From NCBI GenBank assembly GCA_009702965.1, contig WLHB01000001.1, positions 30,788 to 94,787 of the forward strand: 64,000 nt of DNA, in the 5' to 3' direction. Under the pieces are notes generated by a model, which was given only the letters and a program-made list of their open reading frames with translations, did not search any database and was not told the DNA's origin. Below, piece after piece: positions 5,045 through 14,582 of this stretch (positions within the stretch are counted from its first letter, which is position 1; every line of letters begins with the position of its first letter). The stretch comes from Actinomycetota bacterium. GTDB taxonomy: Bacteria; Actinomycetota; Actinomycetes; Nanopelagicales; Nanopelagicaceae. The position numbers and the translations under genes were made by a program.

Positions 5045-5053
5045 GGGTAAATT

Positions 5054-5590
5054 TTAGGTTGAAAGTACGAATTCAGAGCGCTCTTTCGTGCGATCGCTGA
5101 TGAAGTGTTGCTCCTGTTCTTCTAGCCACAAAGTCATCGAGTCCAAAATCTCTTCTCCATCGCGCTCTATAACTCGCTTGAATCCAACTGTTGGGTCAAG
5201 ATCAAGCCAAATCGATGTCGAGAGATATTCCTCAATAGCACGTTGCGAACTTCCAACACCTTCGAGGATCAGCAGTGATGTACTGCCATGAAGACGCGGA
5301 GAGTCAAAGCGTTTTTCTGACCAGTTAAAGGGGGAGTAGATCAGATCCTTCTTTGCCTTATGACAGCTGGTGATCCACGTCAGTGATTCCGTGAGTTTTT
5401 CTCCAAGCGCTCCATCCCACCCTGCATACAGATCATCCATATGGATCACCGTAATTGTGAAGTCATTAGATAGGGCGAGAGAAAGTGTCGAAGCGAGAGT
5501 GGTTTTCCCCGCACCTGCCGGCCCATCAATGGCGATGATGGGCTGATCAGATTTGCTACAAATATCAGCGAGTGCTGCGATAAGTTCCAT
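5054..5590 (-). CDS. P-loop kinase, uridine/nucleoside kinase-like
   Basis: IAIDGPAGAGKTT Walker A, HMDDLY and LILEG; likely start ATG 5590, overlapping the end of the PnuC gene. Confidence 0.82.
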   Translation of the reverse strand: MELIAALADICSKSDQPIIAIDGPAGAGKTTLASTLSLALSNDFTITVIHMDDLYAGWDGALGEKLTESLTWITSCHKAKKDLIYSPFNWSEKRFDSPRLHGSTSLLILEGVGSSQRAIEEYLSTSIWLDLDPTVGFKRVIERDGEEILDSMTLWLEEQEQHFISDRTKERSEFVLST

Positions 5591-6110
5591 ACCATTGCCT
5601 CCACCCAACTGCCGCAACAATTGTAAATACAAAGAATAGAGCAGAGGTAAGAAAGACTTCTTGTGAGTAGAAAAGCGCTGTATATCCAATATTGATGACA
5701 AGCCACATCGGCCAAGCTTCATACTTTTGGTAGACCATCAACATCTGAGCCGCGATTGAGCCAAAAAATAGCCCAGCATCGGCATACGTTGACGCTGCAC
5801 CGAGTCGTTCAAGAATTGGGGCAAGCCCTAAGGTAAGAATGAGAATTAAGAGAAGAAGGTAGATGCGATAAGAGTTCTTGATTCTTCCCGGAACGGCTCC
5901 TTTCTTTCCCCAACCAAACCAGCCTGCAATCGCTGCTGCAATGAAAACTAATTGAAGTGCAGAGCTAGCAAAGTAATCAGATTGAAGGTAGAAAACTCCA
6001 TAAAGAGCACTGCCTAGTATCCAGAATGGCCAGGTAATTCTCTTTCCAGTTACGCCAAGTGAGACTGCGATAAATGAGACAGTTGCTGCAACTATTTCTA
6101 GGGTCGACAT
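5565..6110 (-). CDS. PnuC-family vitamin transporter (probably thiamine-related, PnuT-like)
   Basis: PnuC-type pattern (LEIVA, TWPFWI, ALQL, GWFGW, AQMLM..QKYEAWPMW); preceded by a TPP-like riboswitch. Confidence 0.85.
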   Translation of the reverse strand: MSTLEIVAATVSFIAVSLGVTGKRITWPFWILGSALYGVFYLQSDYFASSALQLVFIAAAIAGWFGWGKKGAVPGRIKNSYRIYLLLLILILTLGLAPILERLGAASTYADAGLFFGSIAAQMLMVYQKYEAWPMWLVINIGYTALFYSQEVFLTSALFFVFTIVAAVGWRQWYGTYRSTR

Positions 6111-6211
6111 GAGTGATTCCTTTCCGCGTCCGCATTACCGGACGGGTCTAGCGGTCGATCTCACGTTGAGATCCTCTCAGCAGCGCTTGTAATAAGCGCA
6201 TGTGCTCCCGC
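6111..6211 (-). ncRNA. TPP-class riboswitch, structurally variant
   Basis: Minus strand reads GCGGGAGCA-[GCGCUU/AAGCGC stem]-UGCUGAGAG-[GAUCUCA/UGAGAUC stem]-GACCGC-UAGACCCGUCCG-GUAAUG-CGGACGCGGAAAGGA then AUG. It has the CUGAGA hallmark, P2 GCGG/CCGC and L5 GUAAUG. Confidence 0.85.
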
Positions 6212-6215
6212 GTTT

Positions 6216-7127
6216 TTAGTCTAGCGCACGACGAGCAGAAAGAGCCTGAACGTATGCCTTACCCGCCACACGAATCCTGCGGGCAGTAGATGTCTTGGCA
6301 CGTTTATTAAAAACGTCATAGCCGATTGCTTCGACTTCATCAACGATTCCACAGTAGAGCTCACTAGCAGCGCGAATACAGGGCCGGCTCGTTGGGTGCA
6401 ACAAATCAATACCAGGATCGGCTTCTCTTTGTAATTCTCGCACTCGTGCAATTTGAAACTTAAGGGCACGAACTATCTCAGGGGTTAACTTTCTGGCATA
6501 GAGCATCTCTTCATCAACACCATCGGCGGCGAGCTCATCAAGAGGTAGGTAGATGCGCCCTCTATCAAGATCTTCTCCAACATCTCGAATGAAGTTCGCC
6601 AATTGGAAAGCGACTCCAAGTTTTTCCGCCGGTGCGTAAGCGCCATCAGAAAGAGGGCCGAGAATAGGAACCATTTGAAGCCCAATCACGGCTGCAGATC
6701 CATAGACGTATTCACTTAAATCCTTGAATGTTGCGTATGTACCTACTGTTAAATCCATCTCCATAGAGTGAAGAAAATCAACGAAGTGTTGGTGGGGGAT
6801 TTTAAATCGTGTGACTGTATCAACAAGGGCAGCCCCTACTGCGTCACTACTTTTTCCAGTTTCCAAATCCTTAAGAACCCCTGAGCTCCACTTATGAAGA
6901 GCATCTGCCTTTTCTTGGGGCGAAAGCGTTGATGCTAAATCATCAACAATCTCATCGGCATATCGCGCAAACCCATAAAGTGCGTGGACAAAGGGCCGCT
7001 TTTCTTTCGGCAAAAGGAGAGTTGCTAAGTAATAAGTTTTTCCATGGAGAGAATTAAGTCTTTTACACTCGCTATATGATGCACGCAGGGCAGGATCAGA
7101 GATGCCTGCAGCATCTAACTCATTCAT
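6216..7127 (-). CDS. crtB: Phytoene synthase
   Basis: LYGFARYADEIVDD and AFQLANFIRDVGED..RGRIYLP motifs. Confidence 0.95.
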   Translation of the reverse strand: MNELDAAGISDPALRASYSECKRLNSLHGKTYYLATLLLPKEKRPFVHALYGFARYADEIVDDLASTLSPQEKADALHKWSSGVLKDLETGKSSDAVGAALVDTVTRFKIPHQHFVDFLHSMEMDLTVGTYATFKDLSEYVYGSAAVIGLQMVPILGPLSDGAYAPAEKLGVAFQLANFIRDVGEDLDRGRIYLPLDELAADGVDEEMLYARKLTPEIVRALKFQIARVRELQREADPGIDLLHPTSRPCIRAASELYCGIVDEVEAIGYDVFNKRAKTSTARRIRVAGKAYVQALSARRALD

Positions 7128-8611
7128 TACTTAACAGGTCCAACAATTCGTTCAGCAGCAAGTCGTCCTGAAATCAGAACCATCGGTACGCCTACTCCTG
7201 GCTGTGTTCCAGAACCGGCAAAGACGATGTTTTCAAAACCTGCAGCGATATTGCGTGGTCTAAATGGACCAGTTTGGAAAAATGTGTGAGCACTGGCAAA
7301 TGGCGCTCCACGTTCCATTCCCTGTGCCTGCCAATCAAGAGGAGTAGTCATTACTTCGGTTTCGATGCCAGCGCTGAAATCGGTGTAGCCACGATCTTCA
7401 AGAGTTTTGATCATATGGTCACGATATGGACCAGCCTGCTTCTTCCAATCAATATCAGCATCAAGGTTTGGTGTCGGATAGAGAATGTAATACGACTCTT
7501 TTCCGGCTGGGGCAAGAGCGGGATCATCTTTGCTTGGAATCGTGACGAGTACTGAAGGATCTGTCATCAAAATCTTCTTATTGATTAATTCGTCAAAAAC
7601 TCCATCCCATGACTCACCAAAATGAATGTTGTGATGCGCGGCGTGGTCATATTTCTTCGAGGATCCGACGAGCAAGGTCACACAAGATGGCGAATACTTA
7701 AGACGCTTGATGTTCAGTGGGGTCTTTCCAAGAAGATCTCGCCACACAACCGGCAGATCTGGATTCATCACCAATGCATCACACTCATAGCGCTCACCTG
7801 TTGCCGTTGTCACCGCGCGGGCGCGTGAATTAACAACCTCAACGCCGGTGACCTCTGTGTTGTACTTAAAGATCACTCCATGTTTTTCAGCCGCCGCAGC
7901 CAGTGCGCGGGGGACTGCGTGCATTCCACCTTTAGGGAAGAAGACGCCATTGACTGAATCCATATAGGCAATAACTGCATAGATAGCAAGTGCTTGCTGT
8001 GGGCTCACGCCGGCATACATGGCTTGGAATGAGTACACCTTTTGCAGGCGTGGGTCTTTAAGAAATTGATTTACCTTTGGTGAAAGTTTCCTAAATCCAC
8101 CGAGTGCAATAAGCCGAGCAAGATTGGGTGTGAGCAAGTTAAAGGGGGAATCAATGTTTCGATCAATGAAGTCGTTCATCTCATACTTATAGAGCTTGGT
8201 AACAAAATCCACATAGCGGCGATACCCGAGCGCTTCTTCAGCGCTGACTGTTCGTCTAATTTCTTCTTCCATCTCTGCAGTGTCCGCATGAACATTGATC
8301 ACGCTTCCATCATGATAAAAAGCGCGATAGAGCGGCTTCACTGGAGTGAGTTCTAGCCAATCTTTCATATCTTCGCCAACGCAAGAAAATGCATCTTGAA
8401 TCAGTGATGGCATTGTGAGAACAGATGGGCCGGTATCAAAAGCGTAGCCATCTTTTTTAAGAAGACCGTTGCGACCACCAGGAACGCTTTCACGTTCAAG
8501 AACTGTCACTTTACGTCCTGCGCCAGCAAGGCGAAGGGCAGCGCTCAAGCCGGCAAGACCTGCGCCGACAACGACAACGTGATCTGTCGGGCCTTTAATG
8601 CGTGCAACCAT
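7127..8611 (-). CDS. crtI: Phytoene desaturase
   Basis: GAGLAG FAD motif, FDTGPS, FPKGG, FQTGPFRP and GSGTQPGVGVPMV; coupled to crtB. Confidence 0.93.
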   Translation of the reverse strand: MVARIKGPTDHVVVVGAGLAGLSAALRLAGAGRKVTVLERESVPGGRNGLLKKDGYAFDTGPSVLTMPSLIQDAFSCVGEDMKDWLELTPVKPLYRAFYHDGSVINVHADTAEMEEEIRRTVSAEEALGYRRYVDFVTKLYKYEMNDFIDRNIDSPFNLLTPNLARLIALGGFRKLSPKVNQFLKDPRLQKVYSFQAMYAGVSPQQALAIYAVIAYMDSVNGVFFPKGGMHAVPRALAAAAEKHGVIFKYNTEVTGVEVVNSRARAVTTATGERYECDALVMNPDLPVVWRDLLGKTPLNIKRLKYSPSCVTLLVGSSKKYDHAAHHNIHFGESWDGVFDELINKKILMTDPSVLVTIPSKDDPALAPAGKESYYILYPTPNLDADIDWKKQAGPYRDHMIKTLEDRGYTDFSAGIETEVMTTPLDWQAQGMERGAPFASAHTFFQTGPFRPRNIAAGFENIVFAGSGTQPGVGVPMVLISGRLAAERIVGPVK

Positions 8612-8619
8612 GATCGCTC

Positions 8620-9705
8620 CTAGCTCTTTCGCGCAGTTGCACTAGCGGCAAGTGCTGATAATAAATCCTGTGAATCAGGTGCTATCTCATGAGACTGTGA
8701 TGCCTGGAGAGCGTCGTAGGTTAATTTCTCAATCAACCCTTCAACACTTTCCACTGCGCCACTATCAATAATGATGCCCCGAAGTACTTCAATGATCTCA
8801 TGAGATAGATCTGGCCGCCCAAGATAGGAAAGTAGTTCGGCTCGTCCAGCATCGGTTGTACGTTCCATGGCCATCGCCATCAAGACTGTGCGCTTTCCTT
8901 CGCGTAGGTCATCTCCAGCGGGCTTTCCAGTGATAGATGGATCACCAAAAATCCCCAAGAGATCATCGCGTAATTGAAAAGCTTCACCGAGGGGGAGTCC
9001 GTATTCTGAAAGCTTCCAGTTGAGCGGATTATCTTTGCTTGGGTTACCAAGTGCGATCGCAGCACCTAGATGAAGTGGACGTTCAATACTGTACTTTCCA
9101 GATTTAAAGCGTGCGATGCGCAGAGATCGATCCACGCTAAAACTCTTCTCGCCCGCTTCGCGAACATCGAGATACTGCCCAGCCATTAACTCAATTCTCA
9201 TTTCATCATGAATTTCTAGCGCGGCGAGTAACTTCGTCGATGAGATACCTGATGTATGAAGCATGTGATCAGATTGCACGAGTGCAAGGTCGCCTAACAG
9301 GATGGCCGCGGCTGTACCGAATTGTTCTGATAGCCCGGCCAATGCGTGCTCTTGGTGCAGGTTTTCAAATCGGCGATGGATCGCAGGTTTGCCACGGCGA
9401 GTATCGGATGCATCCATAAGATCATCATGAATCAGGGCGCAGGCCTGCAAAAATTCCAGACTTGCAAAGGCTTTTATCTCATTCGGTCCTACCTCTTTGC
9501 CAGCAGCTCTATGGCCAGCGTATGCAAAGAGAGGGCGAAGTCGCTTTCCGCCATCAAGGATGAATTCTTCAAGTCCATCACAGACAGGGGCTAACTGAGA
9601 GCCGATCGTTGTCAGATGCACCCGCGCATCGGCAAGATATAACGCAAGGGCTGCTTGAACTTGCTCGCGTACGGATACAAGTTCATCCATAACCTGACTA
9701 TTCAC
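8620..9705 (-). CDS. crtE: Geranylgeranyl diphosphate synthase (polyprenyl synthetase)
   Basis: GGKRLRP, IHDDLMD..RRG and FQLRDDLLG motifs. Confidence 0.9.
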   Translation of the reverse strand: MNSQVMDELVSVREQVQAALALYLADARVHLTTIGSQLAPVCDGLEEFILDGGKRLRPLFAYAGHRAAGKEVGPNEIKAFASLEFLQACALIHDDLMDASDTRRGKPAIHRRFENLHQEHALAGLSEQFGTAAAILLGDLALVQSDHMLHTSGISSTKLLAALEIHDEMRIELMAGQYLDVREAGEKSFSVDRSLRIARFKSGKYSIERPLHLGAAIALGNPSKDNPLNWKLSEYGLPLGEAFQLRDDLLGIFGDPSITGKPAGDDLREGKRTVLMAMAMERTTDAGRAELLSYLGRPDLSHEIIEVLRGIIIDSGAVESVEGLIEKLTYDALQASQSHEIAPDSQDLLSALAASATARKS

Positions 9706-9728
9706 GGGGGCAACGGTACCCTGACGCG
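9706..9728. promoter_or_regulatory. Overlapping divergent -10 elements (leaderless crtE and metF)
   Basis: TACCCT (+, 9717-9722) lies 6 nt before GTG 9729; TACCGT (-, 9718-9713) lies 7 nt before GTG 9705. Confidence 0.65.
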
Positions 9729-10592
9729 GTGAGGATGAGACCTGAAAAGACTATGTACTCTTTTGAGTTTTTTCCTCCGAAAGATCTCGCTGGCGAAGAT
9801 CGACTCTGGCAGGCGCTAGAAACTCTTGCACTTCATGCCCCTGACTTTGTGGCCGTTACATACGGCGCAGGGGGTGGCACACGCGATCGAACAATTCGCA
9901 TCACCTCTGAAATCACAGCACGCACCAAGATTCCAACTGTTGCTCACCTTACCTGTGTCGGCTCAACCCGCGTCGAACTCATTGAAATTTTGGATCGCTA
10001 TAAAGATGCAGGAATTAAAAGTATCTTGGCACTTCGTGGCGATCCAGTTGGTGGACCGCGCGCGCCGTGGACAGCAGTTGATGGAGGACTCACACACGCC
10101 GATGAATTGATCACTTTAGCGCGTGAACATAGTGATTTTACAATTGGTGTTGCAGCATTTCCTGACGGTCACCCAAATTCTGGTGGTGATATGAACAAAG
10201 ATATCGATGTTCTGATCCGCAAACAATCACTCGGTGCATCCTTTGCAACAACACAATTCTTCTTTGATGTTGATAAGTGGAAGCGATTAGTTGACACTCT
10301 AGAGTCACGTGGCTGCGATCTCCCCATCATTGCCGGAGTACTTCCTGTCACAAATGTAAAGCTGCTCACTAAAATGGCAGAACTCGGGGGCACTCCAATC
10401 CCTGATTCAATAGCATCTCGATTTGCAGCAGTAGAAGATAATCCTGATGATGTTCGCAAACTCGGTGTAGAAATTGCGCTTGATCTCTGTAACGAACTCA
10501 TCGACGCCGGAGTACCCGGAATACATTTTTATACGATGAACAGCTCGACAGCGACAAGTGAGATTTTTACTTCACTACAAGAACGGCGCTAG
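9729..10592 (+). CDS. metF: 5,10-methylenetetrahydrofolate reductase
   Basis: SFEFFPPK, VTYGAGG, AHLTC, LALRGD, TQFFFD and HFYTMN motifs. Confidence 0.95.
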   Translation: MRMRPEKTMYSFEFFPPKDLAGEDRLWQALETLALHAPDFVAVTYGAGGGTRDRTIRITSEITARTKIPTVAHLTCVGSTRVELIEILDRYKDAGIKSILALRGDPVGGPRAPWTAVDGGLTHADELITLAREHSDFTIGVAAFPDGHPNSGGDMNKDIDVLIRKQSLGASFATTQFFFDVDKWKRLVDTLESRGCDLPIIAGVLPVTNVKLLTKMAELGGTPIPDSIASRFAAVEDNPDDVRKLGVEIALDLCNELIDAGVPGIHFYTMNSSTATSEIFTSLQERR

Positions 10593-10595
10593 CAG

Positions 10596-11213
10596 ATGAA
10601 GCGGGACGAGTTTTTTTCTACCTGGTCACACCTTCACCTAGGTGCCCAAGTTTCAGGTATCGTCAAAGGTTGGCTCACTATCTCTTTTGCGATAGCGCGA
10701 GTACTTCATTTCTTCCGTATTACCCCTAACCTACTGACCCTTGCTGGAATTCTCTTCGCAGCAGCTGCTCTCTTCTATCCGACAACAGTAATTGCCCTTG
10801 CTTTCTTGATTCTCTCTCTTATCTGTGATGGTGTCGATGGAAGTGTTGCAATCATCGGTAAGCGCGAAAGCGCACTCGGTGCCATTGCTGATTCAATCGC
10901 TGATCGAATCACCGAGGCGCTCTGGTTTATTGCTCTCTATCAATGGGGGATTCCTGCCGAATTTTGCTTAGCGCTCTTCGCTCTTGCCCTCATTCAAGAG
11001 TACGCACGTGCTCGAATGGCATCACTTGGGTTTGCAGAGATAGGTGTTGTCACCATTGCAGAACGTCCAGTGCGAGCCAGCGCTTTAGCCATCTTTATGG
11101 TTTTAGAATTACTTGAGTTTTCATTTGCGCCACTAGCGATCTATATTTTTACAGCAATGGCCACATTTAGTGTCTATCAAGTGATGAAGGCAGCCCGGGG
11201 TTATCTCGTTTAA
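10596..11213 (+). CDS. CDP-alcohol phosphatidyltransferase family protein
   Basis: TPNLLT and DGVDGSVA...GAIADSIADR signature. Confidence 0.88.
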   Translation: MKRDEFFSTWSHLHLGAQVSGIVKGWLTISFAIARVLHFFRITPNLLTLAGILFAAAALFYPTTVIALAFLILSLICDGVDGSVAIIGKRESALGAIADSIADRITEALWFIALYQWGIPAEFCLALFALALIQEYARARMASLGFAEIGVVTIAERPVRASALAIFMVLELLEFSFAPLAIYIFTAMATFSVYQVMKAARGYLV

Positions 11214-12696
11214 TAATTGCCTCTGCAACAATTTCCGCGCTTAATCCAACGAGCGGAAGTCCGCCGCCCGGATGAGCCGATCCACCAACGCAGTACAAAC
11301 CCTTGAGCGGACTTCGATTCTTTGCACGGTTAAAGGCGCTCTGTGCTCCGTTGCTCGATGTTCCATAAATTGAACCACCAGGTGCCATCACACTTTTTTC
11401 TAAATCTGCAGGAGTACGAATCTCTAGTAGCTCTAGCCGATCACGAATTGAAATTCCTCGAGATTCAATGAGGTCAATGATTTTTTGAGCATACTTTTGC
11501 GCAAAGGCTCGGTCACTCCAATCAAAAGAGTCAGCTCCATGCCTTGGTGCATTAACCAGAACAAACCATGCCTCGTGACCAGCCTTACTCACCATTGTTG
11601 GATCGTGCGGGGCGCAGATATAGATAGTGGGGTCTTCAACCGGAATCTTCTTATTAAATATTGATTCAAACTCAGCGTCGTAATCGTGCGGGAAAAGAAT
11701 AGTGTGATGTTCAAGTGGTTCATCGGTCGATGGCTTCAACCCCAAAAGAAGCGAAAAGCCGGCAAGAGAAGGCTCCATCTTCGCAATCTTCTTCTTTGCC
11801 CGACGCACAGATGCTGGTGGATTCTTAATCAAATGCGAGTAGATCAGCCCAGCGTCACTATTTGCTACAACAGTTGCAGCGCTTAACACTCGGCCATCAG
11901 CGAGAGCAACACCAGTGACCTCACCACCTGTATGGAGGATCTCGATGACAGGTGAGTTAAATTCAAAAGTCACACCACGATCCAGGCACCTTTGATAGAG
12001 AGCATCTGCAAGTTTTCCAACGCCACCAGTGATGTGCCATGCGCCGAAGGCTTCTTCTACAAAGGCGATAGATGAAAGAACTGCCGGAGCAGTACGCGGA
12101 TCTGAGCCGCTATAGGTTGCATATCTATCAAGAATCTTTCGCAGATGCGGACTCTTGATCTTGAGCCCGCGTATAGATTTCCAGGGCGAGATTACAAATA
12201 AATCACGCACAAGAGAGCGTCGTTTCAATAAAGATGCCATGGACTTAAGTTCAGATTCAATGAATGGCTCACGCGAGACATCCCACATTGATTCTGCCCG
12301 TCGCATCACAGAGTCCCACTCGCGGGCGGAGTCATCTCCGTAAGAGTCAGCAATTGAATCGAGAGTTTTCTTCCGTGAAAGATTGGCAAAGCTCACATGT
12401 GTACCGTCATGGAATCGATAATCAAAAGATGGATCAACTTCCTTGAGTTCAACTACACGACCAAGAACTTCACCAGTACGTTGAAAGAGATCTCGATAAA
12501 CCGCAGGGAGAGTCAGTAGTGATGGACCTGTATCAAATGCGTATCCATCTATCCACTCAGTCCGACATTTACCGCCATGGCGATCTCCCGCCTCAAAGAC
12601 GCGAACGGTGTAACCCTTCCTTGCAAGGCGTGCAGCTGTTGCCATGCCACCCATACCAGCACCAATAACGATGACATCTTTGGCGTCAGGGCTCAT
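11167..12696 (-). CDS. CrtI-family carotenoid desaturase (CrtD-like 3',4'-desaturase)
   Basis: GAGMGG, FDTGPSLLTLP and VGGSAHPGGGLPLV motifs; clustered with cruF, GT2 and crtA. The specific CrtD activity is inferred from context. Confidence 0.8.
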   Translation of the reverse strand: MSPDAKDVIVIGAGMGGMATAARLARKGYTVRVFEAGDRHGGKCRTEWIDGYAFDTGPSLLTLPAVYRDLFQRTGEVLGRVVELKEVDPSFDYRFHDGTHVSFANLSRKKTLDSIADSYGDDSAREWDSVMRRAESMWDVSREPFIESELKSMASLLKRRSLVRDLFVISPWKSIRGLKIKSPHLRKILDRYATYSGSDPRTAPAVLSSIAFVEEAFGAWHITGGVGKLADALYQRCLDRGVTFEFNSPVIEILHTGGEVTGVALADGRVLSAATVVANSDAGLIYSHLIKNPPASVRRAKKKIAKMEPSLAGFSLLLGLKPSTDEPLEHHTILFPHDYDAEFESIFNKKIPVEDPTIYICAPHDPTMVSKAGHEAWFVLVNAPRHGADSFDWSDRAFAQKYAQKIIDLIESRGISIRDRLELLEIRTPADLEKSVMAPGGSIYGTSSNGAQSAFNRAKNRSPLKGLYCVGGSAHPGGGLPLVGLSAEIVAEAIIKRDNPGLPSSLDRH

Positions 12697-13772
12697 AAAG
12701 AACGACCCTTCCACATGATTTTTTTGCGAAATAGATTTGAATAGATCAGCAGATACACAAAGAGGATACTCGAGATGGGATGCAAGAGTGCGTCGATAAG
12801 TAACGAGCGCGATGAAAGAGCCGAGACCATACGGGAAGCGATGACGAGGAGTAAGGCTATGGCTGCAGTTGTCGATCCTGTAAATGAAAAGATGAATGGC
12901 ATAAGGCCCGAAATAATCATCAAGAGAGCGATTACCGATGAACCTATTCCCCCTCCAAAGCCTTGTGACAGTGATTTTCCATAACCATTACGAATTTCGC
13001 GAAAGTTTGAGTACATACGTGTCGAGGCGATTGAAGATCCATCGCAGACCCCACCGTGAAAACCATTGCGTACGAGTACTCGAGCAAGATCTATATCATC
13101 TAAAACACTCGATCTAATTGAGTCGAAAGATCCGGATGTAATGAGAGCACTTCTTTTGATAAAGAAAAATTGACCATTTGCCACAGCCAAAGATGGACGT
13201 GAGCTTTTCATCGCTAGACGTAGCGGAACCGTTGTCATCCATGTCCACTGCAAGAGAGGTTGAATCAATCGCTCTGAGAGAGTGAGCGCAATCTGGGCTG
13301 GGTATGGCGATAGGAAATCAGCCTGAGTACGAGTCAATACTGCATCCATTCTGGATAGCGCATCAGGAGATAAACGCACATCCGCATCGACTGTCACAAT
13401 GAAATCATTCTTTGCATGAGTCAACCCTTGCGAGAGAGCCCATGGTTTGCCCAGCCACTCTTGTGGCAGTGGATCTGCATCAATAACTAACATGCCAGGG
13501 CGAGTCTTTGTCGCCTCTACTAAGAGCTCACGCGTGTTATCGGTTGAGTTATCGTTGATGAAAATCACTTCGTATCGAGGATGATCAAGAGCTGCCAGAC
13601 TTTCGACCAAGGCGACGACATTGTCTTCTTCGTTTCGACACGGAACTAATAGCGAAAAGGTCAAGTGCCTAGAGCCCACTCGTGGTGGCCTAGTTATTGT
13701 CGATGAATTAACAAATGCCATCACGAAAAGAAAGAGATTGATTCCACATGCAAAGCTAAGAAGAATCGACAT
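12693..13772 (-). CDS. GT2 glycosyltransferase, carotenoid glucosyltransferase-like
   Basis: VPCRNEE, NDNSTD, WLGKPWA, DAD, ANGQ and LDDIDLAR motifs; C-terminal TM helices. Confidence 0.85.
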   Translation of the reverse strand: MSILLSFACGINLFLFVMAFVNSSTITRPPRVGSRHLTFSLLVPCRNEEDNVVALVESLAALDHPRYEVIFINDNSTDNTRELLVEATKTRPGMLVIDADPLPQEWLGKPWALSQGLTHAKNDFIVTVDADVRLSPDALSRMDAVLTRTQADFLSPYPAQIALTLSERLIQPLLQWTWMTTVPLRLAMKSSRPSLAVANGQFFFIKRSALITSGSFDSIRSSVLDDIDLARVLVRNGFHGGVCDGSSIASTRMYSNFREIRNGYGKSLSQGFGGGIGSSVIALLMIISGLMPFIFSFTGSTTAAIALLLVIASRMVSALSSRSLLIDALLHPISSILFVYLLIYSNLFRKKIMWKGRSL

Positions 13773-13778
13773 CAGGAA

Positions 13779-14582
13779 TTACGCGCGATTGAGCCAACGA
13801 GTAAAGAAATACGGTGCAAGGATTGCCGCATAAATCGCTCCGGCAAAAAGCGCCAAACCTGGGCGATCAAAGAAGAAGAACTGAGAGACAAACCCACCGA
13901 CAAGGCTCCACCCTAAGAAAATATCTGCTGCCAGAGTGCTCGGAGCATCTTTACGTCGCTCTGTTGGAAGAATGAAATGCAGAATAGCAATCAGGGTGAG
14001 ACCCGAGAGTAACCATCCAAATGGATTCGATAATGGAATTTCAGGGGCGAATGGAAATGCTGCACCCGTTACTTCCCATGTCCAACGTCCTGCAGTAACC
14101 ATTTGAGGATCAAGGAATAGATCCCACCCCATCAAGATCGCACCACCGTATAAAAAGACCCAAGCACCTGCAACGCGACGTGCAGCAATGAGTGCAGGGT
14201 AGGCCATCATCGCCCAGGCAAAGGGAACAACAAGTGGGACGTCAACGATGAAGAGCCCAAGAGTGCTGCTGTATTCATATACTCCAAAAGGCCAACCTGT
14301 GTTTACGCCGATTGTTTCAATAACTAATGCAAAAACTGTAGTGATCGCAAGGTATGTCAATGCAAATTTACTTCCAAAACTTAACCATGCGTGCAGGAAC
14401 ATCGCTGCTGCACCGCAATACACGGTTGCTAGTGTGAGAATCTCAAGAGGTCTTCCATCGAGAAGTGGATATGGAATTTGAAGCAAGATTGCTAACCCAA
14501 GTACCAAGGTCATCAGAATTTTTGAGCGCTGAGATTGGCCTCGTCGACGGTTTGCCCGCGGCGTGAAATCTCGAATAGACAT
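13779..14582 (-). CDS. cruF: Carotenoid 1',2'-hydratase (CruF family)
   Basis: ETIGVNTGWPFGVYEY, VPLVVPFAW, WDLFLDP and IPLSNPFGW family motifs. Confidence 0.87.
   Translation of the reverse strand: MSIRDFTPRANRRRGQSQRSKILMTLVLGLAILLQIPYPLLDGRPLEILTLATVYCGAAAMFLHAWLSFGSKFALTYLAITTVFALVIETIGVNTGWPFGVYEYSSTLGLFIVDVPLVVPFAWAMMAYPALIAARRVAGAWVFLYGGAILMGWDLFLDPQMVTAGRWTWEVTGAAFPFAPEIPLSNPFGWLLSGLTLIAILHFILPTERRKDAPSTLAADIFLGWSLVGGFVSQFFFFDRPGLALFAGAIYAAILAPYFFTRWLNRA

Follow-up and report, generated by a model that had tools for sequence, protein, structure and literature searches.

Organization of the pnuC–kinase locus

The window, that is, the whole stretch of 64,000 nucleotides analyzed here, is nearest to Ca. 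Planktophila of the acI lineage, and its kinase is 94–96% identical to those of the loci L001 and L002. On the reverse strand of the window, a TPP-class aptamer precedes a gene for a PnuC-family transporter, which runs into a gene for a P-loop kinase (Table 1). The longest open reading frame of the kinase (5054–5722, with a 222-aa start) was dropped, as the 178-aa form dominates among homologs: the ATG at 5590 is preceded by GGAGG at 7 nt and yields 178 aa, the length of most database homologs. With this start, the kinase frame shares exactly 26 nt with pnuC on the same strand, the overlap given in an earlier note on this DNA. The placement of the GGAGG suggests that translation of the kinase is coupled to that of pnuC.

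Table 1. Features of the pnuC–kinase locus, in window coordinates.
Feature	Position	Strand	Remarks
−10 element TAGACT (predicted) of the riboswitch transcript	6218..6223	−	Overlaps the end of crtB; predicted start 0–2 nt before P2
TPP-class aptamer, P4–P5 variant	6124..6210	−	P2, P3, GCUGAGA, P3a, 2-bp P4, 5-bp P5, UAAUG loop; no conserved P1
Purine-rich ribosome-binding region GGAAAGGA	6118..6125	−	Bases 1–2 are the P4 3′ strand
pnuC, PnuT-type (PnuC family) transporter, 181 aa	5565..6110	−	Profiles and WxxWxxxN motif
Ribosome-binding site GGAGG of the kinase	5598..5602	−	Within the 3′ end of pnuC
P-loop kinase, 178 aa, candidate thiamine kinase	5054..5590	−	UCK/PRK/PanK-I fold, PRK06547-like
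−10 element TAAAAT of the downstream PASTA kinase	5051..5056	−	Contains the stop codon of the kinase; likely end of the unit

Downstream, the start codon of the PASTA kinase is preceded at 6–7 nt by a TAnnnT motif in 28 of 28 loci, including those with a longer spacer. This agrees with the claim that this gene has its own −10 element and supports a separate promoter; its start is probably leaderless, and the pnuC–kinase unit thus appears to be bicistronic. A sigma-70 scan that required a −35 element missed both this −10 element and the aptamer promoter, and the two sites that it returned are at chance level (1.9 expected). A metatranscriptome search yielded five runs with a word share of at most 0.09, and the three examined consisted of short contigs, none usefully spanning the pnuC–kinase junction.

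On the other side lies a carotenoid-type cluster (6216–14582) comprising crtB, crtI-like desaturases, a polyprenyl synthase and a glycosyltransferase, together with metF. Many relatives (L010–L029) have two lycopene cyclase genes between crtB and the aptamer; these are missing from the window, and therefore the aptamer promoter overlaps the crtB stop codon.

A TPP-class aptamer with altered pyrophosphate-contact positions

At the Rfam gathering score, no aptamer match was obtained in the window, in a search of its own genome or at 19 related loci; the best that RF00059 reached in the window was 30.4 bits (E = 4.3e-4; 6104–6221, reverse strand), below its gathering score of 54.3. After these misses, we built a custom model from relatives. 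Across 26 aligned homologs, 99.6% of the cells pair, compensatory changes preserve P2, P3, P3a, P4 and P5, and two-sided changes occur at 7 of 18 pairs; none of 500 shuffles reached the covariation score, with the structure derived from the same alignment. The P2/P3/P5 architecture and the J3/2 pyrimidine sensor (U39–A43) are present, and CUGAGAG is invariant in 26 of 26.

The divergence lies at the pyrophosphate end. In the thiM aptamer, as described in the text available for PMC3764141 and bioRxiv 2025.01.21.634073, G60, C77 and G78 touch the pyrophosphate or its metal. The corresponding positions, U59–G60 and C77–G78, are not retained as a rule in Nanopelagicales: the UG after P4 is found in none of 35 distinct aptamers, all of which have a 2-nt linker, and the CG after P5 in 2 of 35 (the window copy retains CG), versus 37 of 38 other actinomycete aptamers in either case; 2 and 3 loci gave no pattern match. 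The element was thus aptly called a variant aptamer: it is of a real TPP type, falls below the Rfam threshold and has lost pyrophosphate-contact positions across Nanopelagicales.

Of 39 Nanopelagicales aptamers, 37 have a TAnnnT motif at a distance of 7–11 nt ahead of P2 (background for a 6–10 nt gap: 2.9% of window positions). With a promoter element so near P2, there is room for little or no P1, and the P1 of the acI aptamer appears to be absent. At the other end, the P4 3′ strand continues into the ribosome-binding region. Direct translational control by riboswitches is described in the literature that we could consult as frequent in Actinobacteria, and we predict it for this aptamer; here we infer both ligand and mechanism from the sequence.

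The acI aptamer is probably an already known kind of TPP riboswitch variant. McCown et al. 2017 (PMC5473149), in the portion of their text available, state that P4–P5 variants bind thiamine, TMP and TPP alike, citing unpublished work (‘in prep.’). In these, as in acI, the pyrophosphate core is changed and the pyrimidine sensor kept; the acI aptamer differs in that P1 is apparently absent too, the likeness being to a description that, in the available text, comes without sequences or gene contexts. For ligand tests, the acI aptamers offer a large natural set of P4–P5 variants whose gene context is clear. Outside acI, TPP aptamers with 2-nt J4/5 linkers lead cytosine/purine/thiamine permeases at L121, L122 and L134, and the L134 aptamer has lost both UG and CG.

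The PnuT-type transporter

The pnuC product passes the cut-offs of both PF04973 (119.7 bits versus 27.3) and TIGR01528 (65.9 versus 42.45), and residues 133–140 display the Pnu ligand motif WxxW(x)3D/N, as given in PMC5749112, in its Asn-terminated form. From the aptamer and the locus, we take it to be a likely thiamine transporter. PnuT is described in the same source as working by facilitated diffusion and as binding neither TMP nor TPP; hence, a trapping kinase is required. Genes of the pnuC type near the kinase at L036, L044, L066 and L068 belong to another group beside rib/his genes, with an FMN riboswitch at L044, and were left uncounted.

The kinase: a UCK-like fold with UCK specificity residues lost

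The best family for the kinase is PRK06547 (NF005115), a family of unknown function that matches all 64 aligned kinase-family members; the window protein, at 86.5 bits, lies under the curated cut-off of 173. Its AlphaFold model (mean pLDDT 95.7) recovered 1rz3 as the best structural match (Z 18.4, rmsd 2.3, 161 aligned residues), followed by a PRK-like protein (Z 18.1), with PanK-I at 16.9 and NRK1 at 11.4. Uridine–cytidine kinases (UCKs) gave Z 17.1 (rmsd 2.5, 161 aligned; hhalign probability 97.3). Thiamine kinases are not listed among the structure matches, which carries no weight for or against thiamine activity. The gene is matched neither by an E. coli ThiK query nor by PF04263 (the TPK profile) or PF01636, and AAA_28 is absent from the 25 Pfam matches of the protein. 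This upholds the description of its motifs as being of the nucleoside-kinase type and fitting no known Pnu partner: the fold is that of a UCK, and the ThiK, ThiN and NadR-type families are unmatched.

These affinities raise the alternative that the protein is a kinase of nucleosides or small alcohols (uridine, cytidine, nicotinamide riboside), unrelated to B1 and simply carried behind pnuT. Database and Atlas homologs are named uridine kinase, the Atlas names being automatic only, and the nearest folds (UCK, PRK-like and PanK-I, Z 16.9–18.4) point the same way. Against it, the protein scores far under the cut-offs of the NCBIfam udk models (35.3 versus 180; 24.6 versus 220.3), and several UCK specificity residues are gone. 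We mapped positions from the kinase through E. coli Udk to UCK2, whose residue roles follow the account available in PMC9163393, in 46 clade sequences that include near-duplicates. The equivalents of the P-loop, the catalytic Asp62 and the Mg-binding Glu135 are K29, D52 and E110 in 46 of 46. The ribose-binding Arg166 is replaced by Val140 in 46 of 46; the base-binding His117 position is Lys93 in the window, with His outside the five commonest residues there; and the equivalents of Arg174 and Arg176 are not kept. On balance, we regard such a nucleoside or small-alcohol kinase as improbable.

One residue counts against a thiamine kinase: Asp59 in the window aligns with the position of the ribose-binding Asp84 of UCK2, at the edge of a 13-residue gap, where Asp is found in 17 of 46 sequences. 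Four Trp positions (58, 90, 128 and 155) are conserved across all branches of the family. An invariant MDDLYAGW in alignment A2 was discounted, having been the search seed pattern, and alignment A3 was used instead. Compared with human UCK2, T. thermophilus UCK and E. coli Udk, the window kinase thus has in common the fold, P-loop, catalytic Asp and Mg-binding Glu, and differs by the 13-residue deletion before the Asp84 position, the four lost residues and the conserved Trp. Model and alignment suggest an active kinase of alcohols that is not specific for ribonucleosides; thiamine, a pyrimidine ring with a hydroxyethyl group, may resemble a nucleoside in shape.

A gap in the thiamine pathway of Planktophila

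The pathway survey covered five genomes of Planktophila; three consist of a single contig, and G000, the genome of the window itself, is 76% complete. ThiL scores above the cut-off in G000, and the same holds for 22 of the 24 other Planktophila. TPK (thiN) and ThiC were found in 0 of 5, thiB had no match over the cut-off, ThiE and ThiD were represented by weak fragments only, and the E. coli ThiK query returned a single fragment (E 0.001) across the five genomes; with 13 queries, tblastn searches of G000 yielded two matches, both short and weak. Thus, the pathway check proposed in the earlier note came out as expected in 5 of 5 genomes, with thiL present and thiC, thiE, thiD, thiN and thiK not found, and no B1 synthesis genes were found, consistent with its view of the host as a vitamin auxotroph. 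Since thiL is present and thiE, thiN and thiK were not found, the missing step is that from thiamine to TMP.

ThiK has a protein-kinase-like fold (APH/choline kinase). A full-length gene of the APH family occurs in G000 (G000:C24:7242-7910) and G014, with no match at all in the single-contig G007; it is not universal in Planktophila. Neither is a second udk-like gene (G000:C19:8613-9161), found in 3 of 5 genomes. The incompleteness of G000 and its possession of both genes weigh against a thiamine kinase at the locus. In G007 and G017 the window-type kinase is the sole udk-like gene, which favors a nucleoside kinase; against this, a nucleoside kinase would leave acI without a visible trapping kinase.

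PF04263 has matches in 113 of 251 actinomycetes, which we did not accept as ThiN: the aligned part spans only about positions 9–44 of 113, mostly in frames of about 400 aa, and the one protein checked (L201:877-2061) is SteA-like, from G058, a genome flagged unpublished. The Pfam TPK_catalytic profile, passing its cut-off on SteA-like proteins in 112 of 251 actinomycete genomes, would yield false thiN calls in pathway surveys.

Conservation of the module and its exceptions

The order-level sample comprises 101 genomes, all of one family (Nanopelagicaceae), and kin are not independent. Among these, 100 have the kinase, 92 the variant aptamer at 53.8 bits or more (by the model built from relatives), and 91 the aptamer, pnuC and kinase side by side; the proposed linkage is thus conserved. 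The module lies between crtB and pknL–nfo, with other surroundings for the same cassette at L030, L031, L035, L178 and L179. The nine genomes with a kinase and an incomplete module have thiB (eight) or ykoE (one), each behind a canonical TPP aptamer. G330, the sole genome without the kinase, has crtB, thiE, TPP–thiO–thiS–thiG, pknL and nfo at the module’s site and additionally a TPP-led CytX-like permease; thiE–thiOSG also stands beside pknL in 4 of 5 other TPP–thiO loci compared. Because relatives keep thiE–thiOSG at the same site, the module fills the lineage’s slot for thiamine synthesis. Two points run against a thiamine kinase here: G330 is a single case, and a kinase kept after the loss of pnuC also fits a thiamine-independent job.

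In G317, pnuC has suffered an in-frame deletion to a 21-codon remnant (L286:2806-2960), with aptamer and kinase still coupled, and thiB–thiP lie elsewhere beside an IS30 transposase (L277), which suggests that the importer was recently replaced. Two loci (L269 and L272, of G344 and G289) have TPP–thiC–thiM–thiE–thiD with an MFS transporter, unusual for the auxotrophic Nanopelagicaceae.

The kinase family beyond acI

The kinase family is present in 130 of 251 actinomycete genomes, a class tally that includes G051 and G058, both flagged unpublished. It directly follows ykoE–ykoD–ykoC at seven loci in six genomes of three families, with a TPP aptamer at five, which extends the kinase’s tie to thiamine transport beyond acI. 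In a quick tree of 169 rows, for which composition bias was flagged, the kinases linked to pnuT group together (one clade of 39 rows, SH-aLRT 98), and those linked to ykoEDC lie in a separate clade (12 rows, 97; five rows without adjacent ykoEDC). Recruitment was therefore likely independent in the two cases, and the presence of two separate branches in TPP-controlled transporter operons is a further point against a nucleoside kinase.

Most family loci are without thiamine context, a fact that favors a nucleoside kinase and counts against a thiamine kinase. Outside Nanopelagicales, thiamine-type transporters neighbor the kinase at only 9 of 130 loci, a count in which some loci had been picked after nearby TPP matches and about twenty had only 1.5-kb flanks; the rest lie near infC–rplT/hisG, argH–tyrS, gatB and other genes. 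Also against a thiamine kinase, many thiE-less actinomycetes outside acI are without the kinase: 33 of 47 thiE-less genomes had no match and 43 of 96 thiE-positive genomes had one, with only 15 candidates scored per genome and three weak partial matches dropped. Among those 33, thiB-type binding proteins occur at four scanned loci, an APH kinase at two and an AAA_28 kinase at one, and six loci carry ykoEDC in an operon to which no kinase gene was assigned; hence, Actinobacteria have other solutions besides this family.

This distribution could also reflect a broad-specificity salvage kinase with another ancestral substrate, in which thiamine activity was selected only in the B1-operon branches. 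Such a history is suggested by the spread over 130 of 251 genomes in varied contexts, with fusions at two loci (L171 and L156), by the presence of the family in many prototrophs and its lack in many auxotrophs, and by the long stem of the pnuT clade (0.55). It sits less well with the conservation of the four Trp positions and the catalytic residues in all branches, suggesting a shared substrate class, and with the co-occurrence of kinase and ykoE (55/74 versus 56/161, kin not being independent). We consider it a long shot, rather less probable than a nucleoside kinase; furthermore, the window protein would still be a thiamine kinase, so that it overlaps with our preferred reading. A further point against a thiamine kinase comes from family f17, where ykoE is found in 15 of 15 and thiE in 0 of 7, yet the kinase in 6 of 15.

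In a third alternative, the kinase acts not on intact thiamine but on a B1 precursor or breakdown product (HMP or an amino-pyrimidine). The text available of PMC6593275 assigns transport of both HMP and B1 to YkoEDC and ThiXYZ, and the kinase follows NMT1/THI5-type ABC genes and a rhodanese at L051 and L061 and precedes such genes at L144. Set against this, no more than 3 of 101 Nanopelagicaceae genomes gave a thiE match and thiD was not found in the five Planktophila, which would make HMP-P a dead end, and the NMT1 loci are without a TPP aptamer, so that the substrate there is uncertain. As the 98 of 101 genomes without thiE could not use the product of an HMP kinase, such an activity is unlikely here, and we give this alternative as a whole very little credence. 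Hence, of the earlier proposal of a non-orthologous kinase for thiamine or a thiamine precursor, the thiamine part is supported by linkage and the pathway gap, and the HMP part is unlikely.

A probable thiamine uptake-and-trap module

In the mechanism that we favor, a TPP-class aptamer would control the PnuC-family transporter gene and the overlapping gene for the UCK-fold kinase. The PnuT-type transporter likely lets free thiamine diffuse in, and the kinase likely phosphorylates it to thiamine monophosphate, preventing it from leaking out; ThiL, encoded elsewhere in the genome, would then convert TMP to TPP. Binding of B1 vitamers to the aptamer next to the ribosome-binding site would shut off translation.

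We estimate at about 70% the probability that the window kinase is a thiamine kinase with a fold not known for that role. Thiamine as the presumed substrate is favored because of the pathway gap, the module in 91 of 101 genomes, its position at the thiE–thiOSG site and the thiB/ykoE exceptions; because of the second branch in ykoEDC operons and the retention of catalytic residues with loss of the UCK2 Arg166 and His117 equivalents; and because the equivalent operon position holds an APH (L213 and L214) or AAA_28 kinase (L224) elsewhere. We therefore see the locus as a genuine module for thiamine uptake and trapping that is conserved and belongs to a known kind, and that combines a probable thiamine kinase with a variant aptamer.

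The closest known systems are the Bacteroides pnuT–tnr3 (PMC5613172) and Shewanella PnuT (PMC5749112) systems, which, as far as described in the accessible text, share with it a TPP-type riboswitch, a Pnu facilitator, an adjacent kinase and metabolic trapping. The window module differs from these in its partner, a UCK-fold P-loop kinase instead of thiamine pyrophosphokinase, in its predicted product, TMP to be completed by ThiL, and in having no TonB-dependent receptor. E. coli ThiK, according to the available part of PMC3020362, catalyzes the reaction proposed here, thiamine to TMP; the window kinase differs from it and from B. subtilis ThiN in matching neither the ThiK query nor the TPK profile. 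In acI itself, Kang et al. 2017 (PMC5301498) had read a THI element with pnuC as PnuT, a system identical in riboswitch, transporter and lineage to that of the window. In the parts of that paper available to us, acI are said to lack almost all salvage enzymes, and neither the overlapping kinase nor the changed aptamer is brought up; those of PMC12442306 hold nothing further on the kinase gene. In the main-text literature, we found no earlier functional assignment of the kinase or account of the aptamer, and an earlier prediction may exist. The claim of an undescribed system may thus stand for the kinase, which is absent from the available acI account (PMC5301498), and falls for the riboswitch–pnuC pair, known as PnuT since 2017, and for the P4–P5 variants, already in print.

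The available text of PMC5301498 presents acI actinobacteria as B1 auxotrophs without an annotated salvage enzyme. Few freshwater bacteria are as abundant, and an identified kinase would complete the one route to TPP that is visible in them. If our reading is correct, acI need intact free thiamine and not TMP, TPP or precursors, which bears on cultivation and on vitamin cross-feeding in lakes. A widespread annotation would also need correction, as roughly half of actinomycete genomes have the family listed as ‘uridine kinase’, and thiamine kinase activity would gain a new fold. We hold more tentatively, and would sooner bet against than for, the wider idea that the PRK06547-like family supplies the thiamine kinase missing from Actinobacteria, as a third fold that traps thiamine, and that in acI it stands under a P1-less aptamer that no longer discriminates by pyrophosphate and senses free thiamine, the cassette having taken the place of thiE–thiOSG at the same site.

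Other kinases and contexts

In family f6, an APH-family phosphotransferase, a candidate ThiK-like enzyme, ends TPP–ykoEDC operons (L213:3266-4417 and L214:2409-3524); it had no tblastn match in G000. In G091, pnuC and the gene for an AAA_28 kinase of the NadR type stand behind a TPP aptamer that keeps UG and has CC after P5 (L224:4464-5760); this kinase is a second candidate for a non-orthologous thiamine kinase.

The NMT1/THI5-linked members combine a binding protein of that type, a rhodanese and the kinase with ABC or ECF genes; they comprise two Actinoplanes loci (L051:532-4480 and L061:69-4492) and L144:1829-7315, the latter with a GntR regulator. These clusters possibly take up a sulfur-containing vitamer and break it down.

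Two fusions of the kinase domain occur: with a chorismate-binding (PabB/TrpE-like) enzyme at L171:1051-3159, L172 being of similar length and location, and with a PhzF-like domain at L156:4170-5588. Finally, 19 loci have, adjacent to the kinase gene, a gene for a protein of about 410 aa with an alanine-racemase N-terminal domain; it mostly lies immediately upstream, and in many cases the two overlap (loci with this type of neighbor: L037, L039, L049, L068, L082–L100 and L168–L170).
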